Source: Candidatus Woesearchaeota archaeon
GTDB taxonomy: Archaea; Nanobdellota; Nanobdellia; Pacearchaeales; UBA284
Direction of reading: 5' to 3'
Length of the DNA stretch: 24,000 nt
Assembly: GCA_964354405.1 (NCBI GenBank)
Contig: CAYGZP010000001.1
Span: 382,570 to 406,569 of the forward strand
Position numbers and translations under genes: made by a program. Positions 7,346-12,519 of the stretch are shown here, in pieces (the stretch's first letter is position 1; every line of letters starts with the position of its first letter). A model generated the notes under the pieces. The model searched no databases. It saw nothing but the letters and a program-made list of their open reading frames with translations, and was not told the origin of the DNA.

Positions 7346-7540
7346 GTTTTTTAAATTATTCCTTTTTTATTTTAAAGCCCCAGTAATTCTGTTAATCCAA
7401 AAGATTTAACAGAAAAGCTTGGACTACACGCCAATTAATAGAGCTTTTTGTTGTTAATAAAAAGTTATGAAATACAGCTGCAACCATGAGTAGCTTATGC
7501 GAAAATCGAAGCAGCAGTGAAGTTTAGTTAATTGACTATT

Positions 7541-7634
7541 AAAGCGCGCCCTTTACCTCAACAGGTTCGACAACAACAGGGCTGATGCCAACGACAACTA
7601 CAACCTCAACAACAATGCGCGTCTTGTTGAAATA
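7541..7634 (+). ncRNA. DGR template region (TR)
   Basis: Noncoding copy of the VR. In the VR frame it reads KRALYLNRFDNNRADANDNYNLNNNARLVEIV, with 8 AAC codons and 1 AAT codon. The core contains 26 adenines, of which 15 are substituted in the VR. It ends 24 nt before the RT start codon. Confidence 0.9.
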
Positions 7635-7658: not shown

Positions 7659-8678
7659 ATGAAAACTTATAAAAACCTTTATGAAAAGCTGTATTCTTTA
7701 GAAAATTTGATTCTTGCCTGGAAAAGTGCAAGAAAAAGAAAAACAAGAAAAGATTATGTTATTGAATTTGAAAAAGATCTTTTTAAAAATCTAATGGCTT
7801 TGCATTACGAATTGAAAAGCCAGACTTATAGCCCAAAGCCCCTAAAATCTTTTATAATAAGAGACCCTAAAACCCGCAGAATTTCAAAATCTGCTTTTCG
7901 TGATAGAATTGTTCACCATGCCTTATGCAATATCATTGAGCCAATATTATCTAAATCTTTCATATATGACAGCTATGCAAATAGAAAAAGGAAAGGAACA
8001 CACAAAGCAATACAAAGATTTGACTTGTTTAAGAGAAAAGTCTCAAGAAATAACACAAAAGCGTGTTTTGTATTAAAAGCAGACATAAAACATTATTTTC
8101 AGGAAGTCAGCCATAAAATTTTATTAAACATAATAGGCAGAAAAATAAAAGATGGAAAAGTTTTGTGGCTTATTAAAAAGATTTTAAACAACCATGAGAC
8201 AAGCAAATCTGACAAGGGCATGCCTTTAGGCAATCTGACATCTCAGTTCTTCGCAAATGTTTATTTAAATGAGCTTGATAATTTTGCTAAAAGAAATTTG
8301 GGGGTAAAATATTATATAAGATACGTTGACGATATTGCTATATTTTCAAATTCTGAGAAAGAATTAAAATGTATTTTAATAAAAATAGAATCCTTTTTGA
8401 AATCTGAACTTGATTTAAAAGTTCATGAAGACAAGTCCAGAATAAAATTAATACATTCTGGAATAAAAATGTTGGGCTATAGAATTTTCTACTACTATAA
8501 ATTATTAAGAAAGAGTAATTTAAGGAAATTCAAGAAGAATTTTACAGAAAAATTAAGTTTGTTAGAAAGTGGAATAATCTGTAAAGAAGAGTTGCTTTTA
8601 AGTTTGAACGGATGGTTTGGATATGCAAAATGGGCAGATACTTATAAGTTAAGAAAAGAAATAATCAATCAAATCTAA
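7659..8678 (+). CDS. DGR-type reverse transcriptase
   Basis: 339 aa. N-terminal LENLILAWKSARKRKTRK, then FRDRIVHHAL and DSYANRKRKGTHKA. PLGNLTSQFFANVYLNELD (8229-8246 encodes GNLTSQ) is the DGR-typical xGxxxSQ motif rather than the group II QGxxxSP. Catalytic YVDD is at 8322-8333. There is no maturase or endonuclease tail. Confidence 0.9.
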   Translation: MKTYKNLYEKLYSLENLILAWKSARKRKTRKDYVIEFEKDLFKNLMALHYELKSQTYSPKPLKSFIIRDPKTRRISKSAFRDRIVHHALCNIIEPILSKSFIYDSYANRKRKGTHKAIQRFDLFKRKVSRNNTKACFVLKADIKHYFQEVSHKILLNIIGRKIKDGKVLWLIKKILNNHETSKSDKGMPLGNLTSQFFANVYLNELDNFAKRNLGVKYYIRYVDDIAIFSNSEKELKCILIKIESFLKSELDLKVHEDKSRIKLIHSGIKMLGYRIFYYYKLLRKSNLRKFKKNFTEKLSLLESGIICKEELLLSLNGWFGYAKWADTYKLRKEIINQI

Positions 8679-8687
8679 ATCTAATGC

Positions 8688-9365
8688 TCAGAACTCCCCA
8701 AGCTTTTTCTGCCCGGGTTTTCTGTTCGCTGTCTTCCATGTCGCCCATGATTTTCTTATCAATCCTATCTTTGCGAGTTCTTTAGCTTTGTCAGTTTTCA
8801 GGAACTTAACGCATAGAGGATCAGAAGGATAGCCGCTCCCGCAATCAACATCATATTTTTTTCTTATCTTATCCATTTCATCATCTCTCGTGACTTTTGC
8901 CAAGATGCTCGCGGCTGAACAGACAGGATGATTAACATCAGCTTTATGCTCGCATTTCAAAACAATTTTATCTACATTATTCACATGAGACAAGACATAA
9001 TTTCTCCATGCCATGATATTATTTGAAGGGCAGTCGATAATGACTTCAACTTTGCTTGGAATATTTTTTGTCAGGACATTGATTATCTCTGCTGATTTGA
9101 GAGCTTCAATCTTATTCAGATTGATTTTCTGTCCTAAGAGCGAGTCAATCTCGCTTGCTGTTGATTTCAGGGTGATATGCGCACCAACAATCTTTTTGAT
9201 TTCTCTCGCAAGAAACTCGCGGCGTTGTGGTGTGAGAAGTTTAGAATCTTTTACTTTGATGAGCTTTAACTTGGCTTCCTGTTTCTCGTCTACTAACACA
9301 CCTGCAAGAATCATCGGCCCGATAACAGGTCCGCGCCCAGCATCATCAATTCCAATTCGTAACAT
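8688..9365 (-). CDS. rnhB: Ribonuclease HII
   Basis: MLRIGIDDAGRGPVIGPMILAGV (DDAGRG active-site motif), then CEHKAD and DCGSGYPSD. The C-terminal QKKLGEF is PIP-box-like. Confidence 0.9.
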   Translation of the reverse strand: MLRIGIDDAGRGPVIGPMILAGVLVDEKQEAKLKLIKVKDSKLLTPQRREFLAREIKKIVGAHITLKSTASEIDSLLGQKINLNKIEALKSAEIINVLTKNIPSKVEVIIDCPSNNIMAWRNYVLSHVNNVDKIVLKCEHKADVNHPVCSAASILAKVTRDDEMDKIRKKYDVDCGSGYPSDPLCVKFLKTDKAKELAKIGLIRKSWATWKTANRKPGQKKLGEF

Positions 9366-9391: not shown

Positions 9392-9496
9392 TAGCGGGGG
9401 TGGGATTTGAACCACACGACCTCGAGGTTATGGGCCTCGCGAGCTAACCAGGCTGCTTTGGGCAACACTTTTTTGTTTTAGTGTTTCCACCCCGCT
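9392..9496 (-). tRNA. tRNA-Met(CAU), initiator-like (A1:U72), with a 29-nt D-arm intron
   Basis: The minus strand has acceptor AGCGGGG/CCCCGCU and discriminator A. The anticodon stem is CGAGG/CCUCG and the loop is CCCAUAA, with the anticodon at 9430-9432. The T-arm is GUG(U)GG-UUCAAAU-CCCAC, with one bulged U. Removing 9458-9486 restores the D-arm GAGC-AGCCUGGUUA-GCUC and gives a 76-nt tRNA. CCA is not encoded. Confidence 0.8.
9458..9486 (-). other. Predicted noncanonical tRNA intron (between positions 10 and 11), bulge-helix-bulge-like
   Basis: The intron is AAACACUAAAACAAAAAAGUGUUGCCCAA. The internal helix is AACAC/GUGUU. The 4-bp helix GGGU (exon)/GCCC (intron 3' end) is flanked by the 3-nt bulges GG|A and AA|A, which contain the inferred junctions. 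That 4-bp helix uses acceptor-stem nucleotides, so it would compete with acceptor pairing. Confidence 0.55.
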
Positions 9497-9497
9497 A
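9486..9497 (-). repeat. Direct repeat copy 2 (TAGCGGGGTGGA): HEG stop codon plus tRNA-Met nt 1-11
   Basis: Exact 12-bp match to 10043-10054. Confidence 0.9.
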
Positions 9498-10037
9498 GGA
9501 TAGCATCCCCGCTTTTATAGAAATATGTTTTATACTTTTAAACTTAACTGAAATAAAGAGATTATATGACGGTAATTTATCCTTAATTGATATGGATTTT
9601 CTCCTTATAGAAGAATTAATCCCCAAAGAATTTAATTCTTTATTCAAAAATTTTATCAATTTAAAATCTGTATTTACTACTTCTATAAAATTCTTCTTCC
9701 TATTTACATATCCTTCTGCATCTATAACTCCCGAAATAAATCCCAATATTTCCTCTTTTTTTAAATTGAGTTTATTTATATCTTTATCAAATAATCCAAA
9801 AAATTCTTTATTTACAACTCTCAATCTTAAACAATTGAATCTTTTATCTTTATAATAATGAATATTATATCCCGCCTTCTTTAATATAGAAACAAGAAAT
9901 TCAATTATCTTTTTGTCATTTACAGAATTTAAATAAAATTCCACATAGTACTTTCTATATTTTTTATCATGATATTTATAACCATCTCCTATAAATAACC
10001 CTTTCAAATATCCAAATTCCTCTTTTGTTATGTTCAT
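9495..10037 (-). CDS. LAGLIDADG homing endonuclease (double-motif, I-DmoI-like size)
   Basis: 180 aa. Motif 1 is LKGLFIGDGY and motif 2 is ILGFISGVIDAEGY. The gene is very AT-rich relative to its neighbours. Its TAG stop overlaps nt 1-2 of tRNA-Met. Confidence 0.85.
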   Translation of the reverse strand: MNITKEEFGYLKGLFIGDGYKYHDKKYRKYYVEFYLNSVNDKKIIEFLVSILKKAGYNIHYYKDKRFNCLRLRVVNKEFFGLFDKDINKLNLKKEEILGFISGVIDAEGYVNRKKNFIEVVNTDFKLIKFLNKELNSLGINSSIRRKSISIKDKLPSYNLFISVKFKSIKHISIKAGMLS

Positions 10038-10042
10038 TTTTC

Positions 10043-10054
10043 TCCACCCCGCTA
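10043..10054 (-). repeat. Direct repeat copy 1 (TAGCGGGGTGGA): duplicated tRNA-Met 5' end upstream of the HEG
   Basis: Exact 12-bp match to 9486-9497. It lies 5 nt upstream of the HEG ATG and about 28 nt downstream of a TATA box. Confidence 0.9.
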
Positions 10055-10077
10055 TCTGGGATATAGACGATAAAGAC

Positions 10078-10085
10078 TTTTAAAT
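10078..10085 (-). promoter_or_regulatory. TATA box driving repeat copy 1, the HEG and tRNA-Met (possibly rnhB as well)
   Basis: The minus strand reads ATTTAAAA, centred about 28 nt upstream of the A of AGCGGGG in copy 1. No comparable element lies upstream of copy 2. Confidence 0.5.
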
Positions 10086-10109
10086 CTAATGGAAAACCTC
10101 TATAAAAAA

Positions 10110-10183
10110 TGGGGCTGCCCGGATTCGAACCGGGGCCGCGAGTGCCCTAGACTCGTATACTAACCAAGCTATACTACAACCCC
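10110..10183 (-). tRNA. tRNA, apparent anticodon AGG (Pro)
   Basis: 74 nt. The acceptor is GGGGUUG/CAGCCCC with discriminator A. The D-arm is GUAU-AGCUUGGUUA-GUAU. The anticodon stem is CGAGU/ACUCG and the loop is CUAGGGC (U33, G37). The T-arm is CCCGG-UUCGAAU-CCGGG. The anticodon complement CCT is at 10146-10148. Confidence 0.75.
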
Positions 10184-11284: not shown

Positions 11285-11305
11285 GCCTCGGTAGCTCAAT
11301 GGCAG
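11285..11305 (+). other. tRNA 5' fragment (acceptor 5' strand, D-stem, D-loop); partner of 12420-12454
   Basis: GCCTCGG-TA-GCTC-AATGGCA-G. GCCTCGG is a perfect 7/7 complement of CCGAGGC at 12447-12453. tRNA-like sequence stops after G21 (GATATT follows), and tRNA-Thr starts at 11312. Confidence 0.65.
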
Positions 11306-11311
11306 GATATT

Positions 11312-11384
11312 GCCCCTATAGCTCAGGTGGAAGAGCACCATCCTCGTAAGATGGGGGTCCCGGGTTCGAAACCCGGTAGGGGCT
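11312..11384 (+). tRNA. tRNA-Thr(CGU)
   Basis: The acceptor is GCCCCTA/TAGGGGC with discriminator T. The D-arm is GCTC-AGGTGGAA-GAGC. The anticodon stem is CCATC/GATGG and the loop is CTCGTAA, with the anticodon at 11345-11347. The T-arm is CCGGG-TTCGAAA-CCCGG. Confidence 0.92.
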
Positions 11385-11385
11385 C

Positions 11386-11392
11386 TTTTTTT
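11386..11392 (+). terminator. Oligo-T archaeal terminator after tRNA-Thr
   Basis: A T7 run starts 2 nt after the tRNA 3' end. Confidence 0.5.
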
Positions 11393-11423
11393 ATGTGTAG
11401 ACCTAATAGCACAAAACACAATA

Positions 11424-11431
11424 TTTAAATA
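11424..11431 (+). promoter_or_regulatory. TATA box for the second LAGLIDADG gene (leaderless spacing)
   Basis: TTTAAATA, centred about 26 nt upstream of the ATG at 11453. Confidence 0.5.
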
Positions 11432-11452
11432 GAAACATTTCTTATATTAGGA

Positions 11453-12418
11453 ATGTATAGAATATTCTTTATAAATACCAAGGATTGTGCCGAATTTTTT
11501 GAAGAAGCAAGGAGAAATTTAGAAGTTAAAAGCTGGAAAAAACTAGGGGAAAGTATAGGAACTAATAAATCGATGATAGATAATTATAGAAAGGGAAGAT
11601 TATGTATTCCTGAAGATAAATTTAATACATTATTAAATCAATTAACTGAAAATAGAAAACAATATTTTTTGAGATTAATCGAAAAGAGAAATAGTAACTG
11701 GGGGCAAATAATAGGGGGTAAAAAAGCATATAATATAAATAAAAGGGCATTTGATATTGGAAGAAAAAATAGATTAAATCAGGTCAAATATAATTTTGAT
11801 ATCCATATTGATCTTTCAGAAGAATTGTGTGAATTTATTGGGGCATTTATTGGAGATGGTTTTACAAACAAATATAGATATTTATATCAAACACAAATAA
11901 CTGGAGATAATGTTTTAGATTCAGACTATTATTACAATAGACTAAAACCTCTTTGTGAAAAATTGTTTAAAATATCTCCTAAAATTACACAAAAGGAAGG
12001 ATGGATAAGATTAAATATATACTCAAAAAGGATGTTTGAATTGTTGACAAAAAGATTTAATTTTCCTGCTGGAAAGAAATCCTCTTCTGTTTGTATTCCT
12101 TCAGAGATCTATAATGGAAAAGAAAAATTACTTAATTCTACCTTAAAAGGAATGTTTGATACTGATGGGGGGATTGGTATTGATAAAAGAAAAGCCTATA
12201 CTGTACCTTACATAAGAATAAATTATACTTCTAGTTGTATAAAGTTGATAAAACAAGTGCACGCTATCTTATTAAAATATTCTATTAGTCATTCAATTCA
12301 TAGAAAAGAAAAAACATTTATGATCCAGATTAATGGTAAAAAGAATGTTAAGATGTTTTTATCAAAAATAGGATTTTCCAATAAAAGACATTTGGATAAA
12401 ATTAGAAGATTTTTATAA
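11453..12418 (+). CDS. LAGLIDADG homing endonuclease with about 130-aa N-terminal extension
   Basis: 321 aa. Motif 1 is LCEFIGAFIGDGF and motif 2 is LKGMFDTDGGIG. The sequence is unrelated to the 9495-10037 endonuclease outside these motifs. The gene is very AT-rich. Confidence 0.85.
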   Translation: MYRIFFINTKDCAEFFEEARRNLEVKSWKKLGESIGTNKSMIDNYRKGRLCIPEDKFNTLLNQLTENRKQYFLRLIEKRNSNWGQIIGGKKAYNINKRAFDIGRKNRLNQVKYNFDIHIDLSEELCEFIGAFIGDGFTNKYRYLYQTQITGDNVLDSDYYYNRLKPLCEKLFKISPKITQKEGWIRLNIYSKRMFELLTKRFNFPAGKKSSSVCIPSEIYNGKEKLLNSTLKGMFDTDGGIGIDKRKAYTVPYIRINYTSSCIKLIKQVHAILLKYSISHSIHRKEKTFMIQINGKKNVKMFLSKIGFSNKRHLDKIRRFL

Positions 12419-12419
12419 A

Positions 12420-12454
12420 AGCAAGGGTTGAGGGTTCAAATCCCTTCCGAGGCT
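12420..12454 (+). other. tRNA 3' fragment (AGCA, variable region, T-arm, acceptor 3' strand, discriminator U)
   Basis: AGCA-AGGGTT-GAGGG-TTCAAAT-CCCTT-CCGAGGC-T, followed by a T-run to 12460. AGCA would complete the D-stem of the 11285 fragment (GCTC...G+AGC). I found no anticodon arm. Confidence 0.65.
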
Positions 12455-12519
12455 TTTTTTAATTATTTTTACTTAGAAAAGATTTTTATATAATTAAAAC
12501 CTATCAAAGAAGGGCTAAG

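Follow-up and report, generated by a model that had tools for sequence, protein, structure and literature searches.

Organization of the locus

The 24,000-nt stretch of DNA analyzed here (the window) contains, on its minus strand, an initiator tRNA-Met gene from a Pacearchaeota/Woesearchaeota-like DPANN archaeon which, compared with related empty sites, contains a 586-bp insertion bearing a LAGLIDADG homing endonuclease gene (HEG). All features described for this locus lie on the minus strand. Upstream of the insertion remain P1 (TTTAAAAG, 10084–10077), the native TATA-like box that now stands 5′ of the HEG, and copy 1 (AGCGGGGTGGAG, 10042–10053), the displaced original tRNA 5′ end (nucleotides 1–12), which is now the HEG 5′ leader. 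The inserted segment comprises the HEG itself (9495–10037), which is the sole open reading frame (ORF) in the insert and occupies almost all of it; a second promoter-like box, P2 (AGTTAAGTTTAAAAG, 9535–9542), in the 3′ coding region of the HEG; the relic of an older tRNA 5′ end (AGCGGGGA, 9506–9513), 21 nt after P2, which doubles as the HEG C-terminal codons K-A-G; copy 2 (AGCGGGGTGG, 9487–9496), corresponding to tRNA nucleotides 1–10; and a predicted 29-nt mini-intron (9458–9486). The 3′ exon (9392–9457, nucleotides 11–76) provides the D arm, the CAU anticodon arm, a T arm with an extra U, the acceptor 3′ strand and the discriminator A, and is followed by a gene for RNase HII (8688–9365; Pfam RNase_HII, 7.8e-45).

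Relative to the empty sites, the insertion follows tRNA nucleotides 10–12, or nucleotide 14 if one mismatch is allowed. These junctions were set by eye and from BLAST coordinates; when the window and the empty sites are aligned three ways with MAFFT, the placement of the 5′ part is ambiguous because of the repeat described below. Judged by this comparison, the HEG and the mini-intron are parts of one 586-bp insertion rather than independent neighbors. Around the HEG and tRNA, every stretch compared with an independent Logan assembly (L001) was identical, so the locus is not an assembly artefact. Elsewhere in the window, a tRNA-Thr gene has a second, larger LAGLIDADG family beside it in mirror-image layout.

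The tRNA and its predicted splice product

The unspliced gene is largely invisible to standard searches. ARAGORN makes no tRNA call in the unspliced sequence and returns only spurious calls in intron mode with relaxed thresholds, while Rfam finds nothing at the tRNA locus at gathering threshold and a partial tRNA match only (23.1 bits, 9392–9454) in a permissive search. Following deletion of 9486–9458, ARAGORN calls a tRNA-Met(CAU) of 76 nt. This in silico spliced tRNA is identical at 76/76 positions to the uninterrupted gene of another DPANN genome (L120), including all 66 nt of the 3′ exon, and at 74/76 to that of L102. The first-pass annotation had held that a proper D-arm forms only if these 29 nt are removed, and both the ARAGORN call and the identity to L120 bear this out. 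Its splice position between nucleotides 10 and 11 is supported in that removal restores the tRNA, but a one-base shift of the junction is possible (10/11 or 11/12).

The description of the tRNA as initiator-like also holds, given its A1:U72 pair and CAU anticodon. The acceptor strands read AGCGGGG...CCCCGCU-A, and A1:U72 and CAU occur likewise in ~70 DPANN genomes. At 29–31:39–41, where three successive G:C pairs are a mark of archaeal initiators, the anticodon stem (CGAGG/CCUCG) contains A29:U41, G30:C40 and G31:C39, and many of its relatives have GGG:CCC in a comparison made among initiator tRNAs. The T arm carries one extra nucleotide, which is normal for this tRNA type. A pseudogene reading of this nucleotide was considered and rejected, because it is conserved and common to the tRNA-fMet of Streptomyces and Clostridia, and because a U:A pair has changed to C:G in a compensatory manner.

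A predicted relaxed bulge–helix–bulge intron

The 3′ part of the intron pairs with tRNA nucleotides 5–8, forming a bulge–helix–bulge (BHB). The fold matches that originally drawn for this segment and is the local minimum-energy structure: a central GGGU/GCCC helix (9492–9489 with 9463–9460), bulges GG↓A and AA↓A (9488–9486 and 9459–9457) and an inner helix (9485–9480 with 9469–9464). Across 18 distinct homologous introns, 91.4% of alignment cells are paired, as opposed to 28–53% with slid partners; pairing in the central helix is complete (100%) in 18/18, and compensatory changes occur at all seven inner-helix pairs. None of 500 shuffles reached the observed covariation score. The BHB fold of the 29-nt intron is thus supported by covariation, as far as sequence comparison can tell. 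An outer helix of just 2 bp (G2-C13 and C3-G12, with G4 unpaired) closes the 3′ bulge, which places the intron in the relaxed BHB class and qualifies the original designation of a BHB-like D-arm intron to that extent. When the full pre-tRNA is folded, the conformer with an intact acceptor stem (−37.1 kcal/mol) is preferred over the BHB conformer (−28.0 kcal/mol), the latter being favored in the local fold only.

Two copies of the tRNA 5′ end

The sequence TAGCGGGGTGGA occurs exactly twice in the window, at 10054–10043 and 9497–9486 of the minus strand, and 0/100 shuffles contain two matches. The same pair is found by a repeat tool, with a 557-nt spacing (family D4). A 12-bp duplication of the tRNA 5′ end therefore brackets the ORF, as the first-pass annotation had claimed; the repeat is real, but its extent needs correction, in that copy 1 matches the tRNA to nucleotide 12, or to nucleotide 14 with one mismatch. 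Also confirmed is the overlap of copy 2 with the HEG stop codon, TAG (9497–9495), which spans tRNA positions −1 to +2.

Copy 1 includes a Shine–Dalgarno-like GGUGGAG followed by AAAA and ATG, and precedes the HEG start in most relatives, where it is frequently degenerate. The distance from P1 to A10053 is 23 nt, the value most often found where initiator tRNA genes of the clade lack a HEG (29/72). The TATA box noted upstream of copy 1 in the first-pass annotation is present, one base away from the 10078–10085 first given for it. From this arrangement, P1 and copy 1 would now drive the HEG, forming its promoter, leader and ribosome-binding site.

The copy closest to the 3′ exon behaves differently from copy 1. 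In all 31 scored loci (of ~33 related ones), the downstream-most 5′ end, here copy 2, forms 7/7 Watson–Crick pairs with the 3′ acceptor strand. In this window copy 1 shows no mismatch up to nucleotide 12, and some splicing from it may occur here. At least 12 relatives have an imperfect copy 1, often with T at nucleotide 1, and in ~6 it is undetectable; in two loci (L135 and L139) it corresponds to a different tRNA variant from the resident gene. Because copy 2 always pairs with the acceptor strand while copy 1 often fails to, copy 2 is favored as the working 5′ exon.

These observations bear on one of two models proposed at the outset, in which 10043 to 9458 is a single HEG-bearing BHB intron, copy 1 is the 5′ exon and copy 2 is intronic, so that the endonuclease would be translated from the excised RNA, possibly circular, as with rRNA introns of the I-DmoI type. 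As a description of the inserted DNA this is right, as the segment is exactly what distinguishes the window from empty sites. Copy 1 is intact here and stands at the native promoter distance, its GGGU could pair with GCCC as that of copy 2 does, and I-DmoI, the closest solved relative of the HEG product, is itself encoded in an archaeal rRNA BHB intron. The proposed RNA pathway is nevertheless unsupported. The acceptor mismatches of copy 1 are never seen in copy 2, and the covarying inner helix forms only with sequence following copy 2. Some relatives have a HEG and no intron, and others an intron with neither HEG nor copy 1. Where an intact tRNA gene with no intron follows copy 1 and the HEG, copy 1 cannot supply the 5′ splice site. 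Copy 1 furthermore extends beyond the 10/11 splice site, which fits insertion into an intronless gene and not an exon–intron border, and the ORF stands not within the intron but before the 5′ exon whose changes track those of the acceptor strand. A single 586-nt intron is accordingly very improbable.

The final ~15 codons of the HEG contain both P2 and the relic 5′ end. P2 is paired with P1 by the repeat tool (family D11), is kept in nearly all relatives, and alone remains as a promoter candidate in two loci from which the HEG has been deleted (L083 and L051). It also encodes the conserved HEG motif SVKFK, and its conservation may reflect this protein motif rather than a promoter role. The relic occupies the same position in type A relatives, an allele class that includes L118 (from CP070794.1), and in L135 its sequence matches the resident tRNA variant, AGCAGGG. 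The functional tRNA of L008 begins 24 nt beyond the P2 box of that locus, about where the relic lies in this window, and that start is read as the HEG C-terminus.

The LAGLIDADG endonuclease

The ORF (10037–9495) encodes 180 residues with two LAGLIDADG motifs, GLFIGDG and GVIDAEG, and matches Pfam LAGLIDADG_3 (66.5 bits against a cut-off of 22.5; 2.6e-18), in agreement with its initial assignment as a double-motif LAGLIDADG protein. A profile of the family matches I-DmoI at 8.7e-8 over residues 11–147. Among 12 homologs, the acidic residue D18 is almost invariant and E108 is invariant. On this basis, the protein is identified as an I-DmoI-like monomeric LAGLIDADG homing endonuclease, with DNA cleavage as its predicted activity.

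Homologs fall into 11 protein clusters and 45 metagenome loci. Of 33 HEG ORFs, 30 are intact with both acidic motifs; two are frameshifted and one (L011) lacks an ATG. The distribution is patchy, with the HEG present in 3 of ~78 archaeal species genomes among the first 120 pattern matches listed.

It is possible to ask whether such a protein has instead been domesticated and is inherited vertically, acting as a maturase-like or WhiA-like DNA- or RNA-binding factor in initiator tRNA expression or processing. The association of the HEG with initiator tRNA persists down to ~40% protein identity, Pfam finds the product weakly similar to the LAGLIDADG-like domain of WhiA, and the ORF overlaps promoter-like and tRNA 5′ sequences, all of which would suit such a role. 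The patchy distribution would not, and nor would a syntenic relative lacking the HEG, frameshifted copies, deletion remnants, or tandem HEGs on one contig (L149). The conserved acidic catalytic residues likewise point to a nuclease, and BHB splicing is carried out by a protein enzyme that needs no maturase. Domestication is therefore considered unlikely.

Empty sites and the separability of HEG and intron

The first-pass annotation pointed to HEG-less alleles in related genomes as an informative comparison, and two such empty sites frame the insertion. Pace33H (L105), a member of the Pacearchaeota, has an intronless, HEG-less gene in a syntenic arrangement of S2, tRNA-Ser, tRNA-Pro, tRNA-iMet and RNase HII, and L120 has the identical mature tRNA. 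The synteny with Pace33H is also the basis for placing the host as Pacearchaeota/Woesearchaeota-like. Occupied and empty alleles thus coexist at one conserved site. The RNase HII neighbor is shared by Pace33H and several, not all, HEG-bearing relatives, and the same minimal HEG unit recurs beside initiator tRNA genes with unrelated flanking genes.

The relatives form a compact set of states: an empty site, a HEG with an intact tRNA, a HEG with an intron, and an intron with only a HEG remnant. A HEG accompanies an intact, intronless tRNA in L008, L148, L151, L153 and L159; in L008–L010 the HEG ORF overlaps the complete intronless tRNA, and in some relatives copy 1 and the HEG stand in front of one. 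Conversely, the HEG has been deleted and copy 1 is gone in L083, L033 and L051, which retain copy 2 and the intron. These arrangements show that HEG and intron are separable. Simple co-inheritance, in which each intron position would mark one HEG clade, was rejected, as the neighbor-joining tree interleaves the architecture types. Either order of events, intron gain or intron loss, would be compatible with that tree.

The comparative data favor the other model proposed at the outset, of a small 29-nt intron and a free-standing HEG in the tRNA leader, with two amendments: the HEG and intron are parts of one 586-bp insertion, and P2 and the relic of an older tRNA 5′ end lie inside it as well. 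The locus is best read as a mobile HEG cassette in an otherwise intronless initiator tRNA gene that has been rebuilt by copy 2 and the mini-intron, a reading to which we assign a probability of roughly 0.7.

A direct repeat of a tRNA end (copies 1 and 2) flanking an insert beside a rebuilt tRNA gene also invites comparison with integrase-type elements such as pNOB8 or SSV. The repeat would then be an attachment-site duplication and the LAGLIDADG gene a surviving passenger. Repeated tRNA ends are typical of site-specific integration, and the layout of tRNA 5′ fragment, insert, and rebuilt tRNA with a new intron is that reported in PMC3293823. No recombinase gene is present in the 586-bp insert, however, or among the called genes of more than 40 related loci. 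The insert is small and nearly filled by the LAGLIDADG ORF, the minimal unit recurs with unrelated flanks, and the HEG ORFs are mostly intact with their catalytic motifs. An integrase-derived origin is, on balance, very improbable, and the mobile HEG cassette remains preferred.

A proposed mechanism of homing and immunity

An uninterrupted G7/C13 5′ region is found at 0 of ~33 HEG-bearing loci and in 53 of 73 HEG-less genomes, a count of loci that are not phylogenetically independent. The mini-intron interrupts the presumed recognition site; it probably destroys the endonuclease target, and the occupied allele would thus be immune. In relatives, immunity could be conferred by introns at 5/6, 7/8 or ~16/17, or alternatively by the base changes A7:U66 and A13:U22. 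Of these two changes, A7:U66 is present in 12 HEG-less genomes as well.

In the proposed mechanism, the endonuclease would cut uninterrupted initiator tRNA genes near nucleotides 12–15, and repair would copy the cassette from the occupied allele, allowing spread by homing. The tRNA would be expressed from copy 2, either by initiation at P2 or by read-through from P1, its leader trimmed by RNase P, and the 29 nt removed by the archaeal splicing endonuclease and ligase, to give a normal 76-nt initiator tRNA. Recombination between the repeated promoter/5′-end modules could later delete the HEG, leaving an orphan non-canonical intron.

Relation to known systems

The HEG product resembles I-DmoI-type enzymes in being a single chain within ~180–200 residues with two motifs and conserved acidic residues, in its archaeal host, and in its linkage with an intron removed (here predictively) by the tRNA splicing endonuclease. 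The ORF differs from that of I-DmoI in its setting, which is a tRNA gene instead of one for rRNA, and in lying outside the intron, before the working 5′ exon. Its coding sequence also takes in P2 and the relic 5′ end, and its relatives include HEGs without introns and introns without HEGs.

The Seg and Mob endonucleases of phage T4 are free-standing GIY-YIG or HNH enzymes whose genes are inserted between other genes. They share with the present HEG a position outside any intron or intein, beside a conserved presumed target that differs in occupied alleles. Here, however, a LAGLIDADG gene lies within the tRNA gene, together with a replacement tRNA 5′ end and an intron. SegB, encoded in the T4 tRNA gene region, is mentioned in PMC13096335.

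A mobile-element model of tRNA gene disruption has been put forward for the tRNA-Thr of Caldiarchaeum subterraneum (Sugahara et al. 2012, PMC3293823), in which a non-canonical intron is proposed to block further invasion. Both loci combine an upstream tRNA 5′ fragment, an insert, and a rebuilt tRNA that has gained a non-canonical intron. The Caldiarchaeum element, however, is 1.8 kb long, with a putative recombinase and att recombination, whereas the element described here is 0.59 kb and has a LAGLIDADG endonuclease only. Its presumed target is the initiator tRNA gene, and dozens of DPANN contigs contain it, with the intron at one of several positions.

Non-canonical introns and split tRNAs of Crenarchaeota, Nanoarchaeum and ARMAN offer a further parallel. 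They too lie outside position 37/38, in the acceptor/D-arm region, and likewise combine a 4-bp central helix, a well-formed 5′ bulge and inner helix, and a weakly closed 3′ bulge. Splicing endonucleases of DPANN archaea carry inserts linked with more extensive tRNA gene disruption (PMC5829648). In contrast to known non-canonical tRNA introns, which have no associated protein gene, the intron described here travels with, or was left by, a HEG cassette. Searches of the literature, mostly outside subscription journals, turned up no account of an initiator tRNA gene with an adjacent HEG, in line with the initial impression that HEGs tied to non-canonical tRNA introns are not well documented.

Implications for tRNA gene disruption

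The origin of non-canonical tRNA introns and of tRNA fragmentation are long-standing questions, for which mobile-element and protection ideas have been supported by few cases (PMC3293823; reviewed in PMC4090602 and PMC4390854). The locus described here, together with ~45 relatives, ties intron presence to a HEG cassette and not to an integrase. It is tempting to speculate, if only tentatively and at somewhat less than even odds, that in DPANN archaea some non-canonical tRNA introns and orphan tRNA fragments originate from HEG cassettes. In such a general scheme, a cassette would enter a tRNA gene and repair it with its own tRNA segment carrying a short, immunizing BHB intron; decay or deletion of the HEG would then leave an orphan intron (5/6, 7/8, 10/11 or ~16/17) and stray tRNA ends. 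The mirror-image LAGLIDADG family at tRNA-Thr suggests that the cassette habit may be general. Standard tRNA finders miss the essential gene described here. Prediction of full tRNA sets has failed for some DPANN genomes (PMC5829648), and missed interrupted tRNA genes of this kind may help to explain their incompleteness.

Organization of the initiator tRNA locus

The initiator tRNA-Met locus lies on the minus strand of the window. A TATA-like box identified by sequence reading (P1, TTTAAAAG, 10084-10077) and a 23-nt spacer precede an upstream copy of the tRNA 5′ end (copy 1, AGCGGGGTGGAG, 10053-10042), the bases AAAA, and the homing endonuclease gene (HEG; ATG to TAG, 10037-9495), which encodes a two-motif LAGLIDADG protein (Pfam LAGLIDADG_3, 2.6e-18). 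These are followed by a downstream copy of the 5′ end (copy 2, AGCGGGGTGG, 9496-9487), a predicted 29-nt intron (AAACACTAAAACAAAAAAGTGTTGCCCAA, 9486-9458), the 3′ part of the tRNA (AGCAGCCTGGTTAGCTCGCGAGGCCCATAACCTCGAGGTCGTGTGGTTCAAATCCCACCCCCGCTA, 9457-9392), and an RNase HII gene (9365-8688). There are exactly two occurrences of the 12-mer TAGCGGGGTGGA in the 24 kb, and two matches were obtained in 0/100 shuffles. The unspliced tRNA is called by neither ARAGORN nor Rfam, which gives a partial match to 9392-9454 alone (23 bits); once the 29 nt are deleted in silico, ARAGORN calls a 76-nt tRNA-Met(CAU). The repeat, LAGLIDADG ORF, TATA-like box, and interrupted tRNA-Met described in the first-pass annotation are thus borne out by sequence reading, Pfam, the shuffles, and ARAGORN. 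Misassembly is excluded, because across the stretches compared the window is matched exactly by L001, an independent assembly from Logan.

Scanning for the T-arm and acceptor pattern yielded at least 120 matching stretches. About 78 of the matches listed belong to Woesearchaeota, Pacearchaeota, or Nanoarchaeota genomes, the remainder being bacterial tRNA-fMet genes. The predicted spliced tRNA is identical to uninterrupted genes at 76/76 positions (L120) and 74/76 positions (L102). The complete Pacearchaeota genome Pace33H (L105) shares synteny with the window over S2, tRNA-Ser, tRNA-Pro, tRNA-iMet, and RNase HII; its initiator tRNA gene has neither intron nor HEG and therefore represents an empty site. 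Relatives of the HEG comprise 11 protein-cluster members and 45 metagenome loci, and nearly all directly adjoin an initiator tRNA gene.

A predicted relaxed bulge-helix-bulge mini-intron

Twenty distinct homologous introns of 18–41 nt were gathered, and 18 were scored against the fold first proposed for the 29 nt (a GGGU/GCCC helix, bulges, and an inner helix). Pairing of the central helix (tRNA nt 5-8 GGGU with RCCY) holds in 18/18, and compensatory changes occur at 7/7 pairs of the inner helix. In the proposed register 91.4% of cells are paired, versus 28–53% with the 3′ partners slid, and the covariation score was equalled by 0/500 shuffles. The local minimum-energy fold is also a bulge-helix-bulge, with an outer helix of 2 bp (G2-C13 and C3-G12). 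Covariation and local folding thus uphold the proposed structure. Across the full precursor, the bulge-helix-bulge conformer (−28.0 kcal/mol) competes with the acceptor stem (−37.1 kcal/mol); given this and the 2-bp outer helix, the motif is best termed relaxed. As judged from comparative sequence data, the predicted splice product and intron are real. Greater disruption of tRNA genes has been linked to an insert (L3 loop) in DPANN splicing endonucleases (PMC5829648).

Introns at sites other than 10/11 also occur, and the clade's initiator tRNA gene is an intron hot spot, with two or three introns in some genes (L005 about 2880-2925; L033, L036, L059; L012, L017, L020, L044, L045, L087, L128, and others). 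These lie in the D loop, the anticodon stem (~29/30), and the T arm (L147, L156, L162), and at 37/38, where some exceed 100 nt.

Identity of the 5′ exon

Two arrangements had been offered: a 29-nt intron with a free-standing HEG in the tRNA leader, or a single 586-nt HEG-bearing intron spliced from copy 1. Acceptor pairing was scored in 31 of ~33 HEG-bearing loci examined. The downstream-most 5′ end forms 7/7 Watson-Crick pairs with the 3′ acceptor strand in 31/31, including lineages with an altered stem (AGCAGGG with CCCTGCT). At least 12 loci have an imperfect copy 1, with T at nt 1 (L135, L139, L141, L143, L168, L171), G7 opposite U66 (L008, L151, L153, L159), or other mismatches (L148, L157), and ~6 distant loci lack it. 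In L008-L010, L148, L151, L153, and L159, copy 1 and the HEG precede a complete intronless tRNA, so splicing from copy 1 is impossible there. In L008 (the same contig as L099 and L132), the tRNA's first ~35 nt encode the HEG C-terminus, and the stop is the UAA of the anticodon loop. Conversely, the HEG body and copy 1 are gone from L083 and L033 (both with a 10/11 intron) and from L051 (intron in the D loop); what remains is one 5′ end, the intron, and the final codons of the HEG. Copy 1 reaches tRNA nt 12 (nt 14 allowing one mismatch), beyond the 10/11 junction, and has the same reach in L155, where the intron is at 7/8.

Acceptor pairing, the separate occurrence of HEG and intron, and the extent of copy 1 together indicate that copy 1 was once the 5′ end of an intronless gene and has since been displaced, rather than being an exon–intron border. 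Copy 2 and the 29-nt intron very probably constitute the working gene, which favors the free-standing HEG, and the first-pass interpretation is upheld in part. The 586-nt alternative holds as a description of the inserted DNA, and otherwise fails on the copy 1 mismatches, the separate occurrence of HEG and intron, and the extent of copy 1.

Cassette anatomy and candidate promoters

The conserved HEG C-terminus, SVKFK-x-L-x-H-x-SIKAG, is encoded by AGTTAAGTTTAAAAG, a ~21-nt spacer, and AGCGGGG(A); to judge by its sequence, this coding end has the form of a native tRNA promoter and tRNA start. In the window these are a candidate promoter-like box (P2, 9542-9535, minus strand) and a relic tRNA 5′ end (9513-9506, minus strand), and a repeat tool pairs 9534-9553 with 10076-10095 (family D11). 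The P2 box is kept in nearly all relatives. In HEG-less genes the TATA box lies modally 23 nt from A1 (29/72), and in L008 the working tRNA begins 24 nt after P2. P2 is the sole promoter candidate in the HEG-deleted L083 and L051. Transcription from P2 would leave a ~17-nt leader ahead of copy 2. Copy 1 contains GGUGGAG four bases ahead of the HEG ATG; P1 and copy 1 may express the endonuclease, and P2, or read-through from P1, the tRNA.

Probable mobility of the HEG

The HEG protein is I-DmoI-like. Its ORF is intact with both acidic motifs in 30/33 cases, two being frameshifted and one lacking an ATG, and the HEG is carried by 3 of the ~78 archaeal genomes among the matches listed. L149 has two tandem HEGs on one contig with a tRNA 5′ end after each, and in L135 and L139 the tRNA variant to which copy 1 belongs is not that of the resident gene. 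These features would fit a cycle of invasion, decay, and loss with host-to-host transfer or co-conversion, and the HEG is quite probably a mobile cassette. Deletion between the repeated promoter and 5′-end modules would yield the L083 and L051 states. On a rough HEG tree the architecture types interleave, with L008 (no intron) sister to the window and L011 (intron), so introns were gained and lost repeatedly. The best explanation, with a probability of roughly 70%, is an HEG cassette in the initiator tRNA gene that brought its own replacement 5′ exon and bulge-helix-bulge mini-intron.

Other tRNA-linked elements

A second, larger LAGLIDADG gene (11453-12418, plus strand; 321 aa, including an HTH domain) lies 3′ of a complete tRNA-Thr(CGU) (11312-11385). 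Flanking the pair, within 11285-12455 (plus strand), are a tRNA-like 5′ fragment (GCCTCGGTAGCTCAATGGCAGGATATT, 11285-11311) before the tRNA and a 3′ fragment ending in TTCAAATCCCTTCCGAGGCT at about 12424-12455. The acceptor strands of these fragments pair at 7/7 positions, with no anticodon arm between them. Two relatives (L177 861-2010 and L179 859-2000; 65% and 61% identity) have, in order, tRNA-Thr(CGU), a conserved spacer, the gene, and a tRNA 3′ fragment that does not match; in DPANN, 318 family members are found at E≤0.001. By sequence, the layout looks like a mirror image of the initiator tRNA cassette. In the genome contigs L033 and L059, a different ~210-aa LAGLIDADG ORF, which shares 27% identity with the C-terminal portion of the 321-aa protein, lies upstream of intron-bearing initiator tRNA genes, and in L033 it adjoins a 180-aa family remnant. 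This gene appears to be targeted by more than one endonuclease family. Extra initiator tRNA 3′ ends (...CCCACCCCCGCTA or ...CCCGTCCCCGCTA, each continuing into the same flank) occur ~100–200 nt downstream of the tRNA (L168 about 2060-2148, L171 about 2230-2440, L148 about 2440-2600), a sign that the 3′ side may have undergone additional partial duplications.

An RT-16 RNA (Rfam, 97 bits; 7379-7544, plus strand) immediately precedes a reverse transcriptase of 339 aa (7659-8678; Pfam RVT_1 2.4e-27), whose top NCBIfam match is group II intron RT/maturase at 165 bits, below the model's 300-bit cut-off. The region holding this block (8688 down to 6502) has no counterpart in Pace33H. The tRNA-Pro adjoining the initiator tRNA gene (10110-10183, minus strand) has anticodon AGG with A at position 34, unusual for archaea and kept in Pace33H (L105 6219-6293) and L033. 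The initiator T arm (9392-9420, minus strand; at least 120 genome loci) has one extra nucleotide, GYG-U-GG with CCCRC, and a compensatory U:A to C:G change. Streptomyces and Clostridia tRNA-fMet have exactly the same T arm, and, except for A1:U72, the DPANN initiator and bacterial tRNA-fMet have nearly identical bodies. Position 33 is C in most DPANN copies (CCCAUAA loop).

Comparison with known systems and a proposed role of the intron

The nearest known parallel is the tRNA-Thr locus of Caldiarchaeum, which has the same layout: a 5′ piece of the tRNA is followed by a 1.8-kb element encoding a recombinase and then by a rebuilt tRNA that has gained a new intron (PMC3293823). In the window, however, the engine is a 0.59-kb LAGLIDADG cassette without a recombinase and, in contrast to I-DmoI-type elements, the ORF lies outside the intron. 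Homing endonucleases go unmentioned in reviews of archaeal tRNA introns and disrupted tRNA genes (PMC4090602, PMC4390854, PMC4033280), and we found no description of an HEG beside an initiator tRNA in the literature covered; as that coverage is incomplete, we rate the arrangement as a variation on known kinds, not as categorically new.

In the Caldiarchaeum model, a mobile element leads to intron gain and the intron serves as protection (PMC3293823). The common uninterrupted sequence AGCGGGGTGGAGCAG is present in 53/73 HEG-less genomes and in no HEG-bearing locus examined. Every HEG-bearing locus has an intron at 5/6, 7/8, 10/11, or ~16/17, or an A7:U66 or A13:U22 variant, all of them no farther than about 10 nt from the insertion point, in the stretch that a ~22-bp LAGLIDADG site would occupy. 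Given this clustering, and bearing in mind that the loci compared are not independent, we propose as an evenly balanced hypothesis that the mini-intron may render the occupied allele immune.
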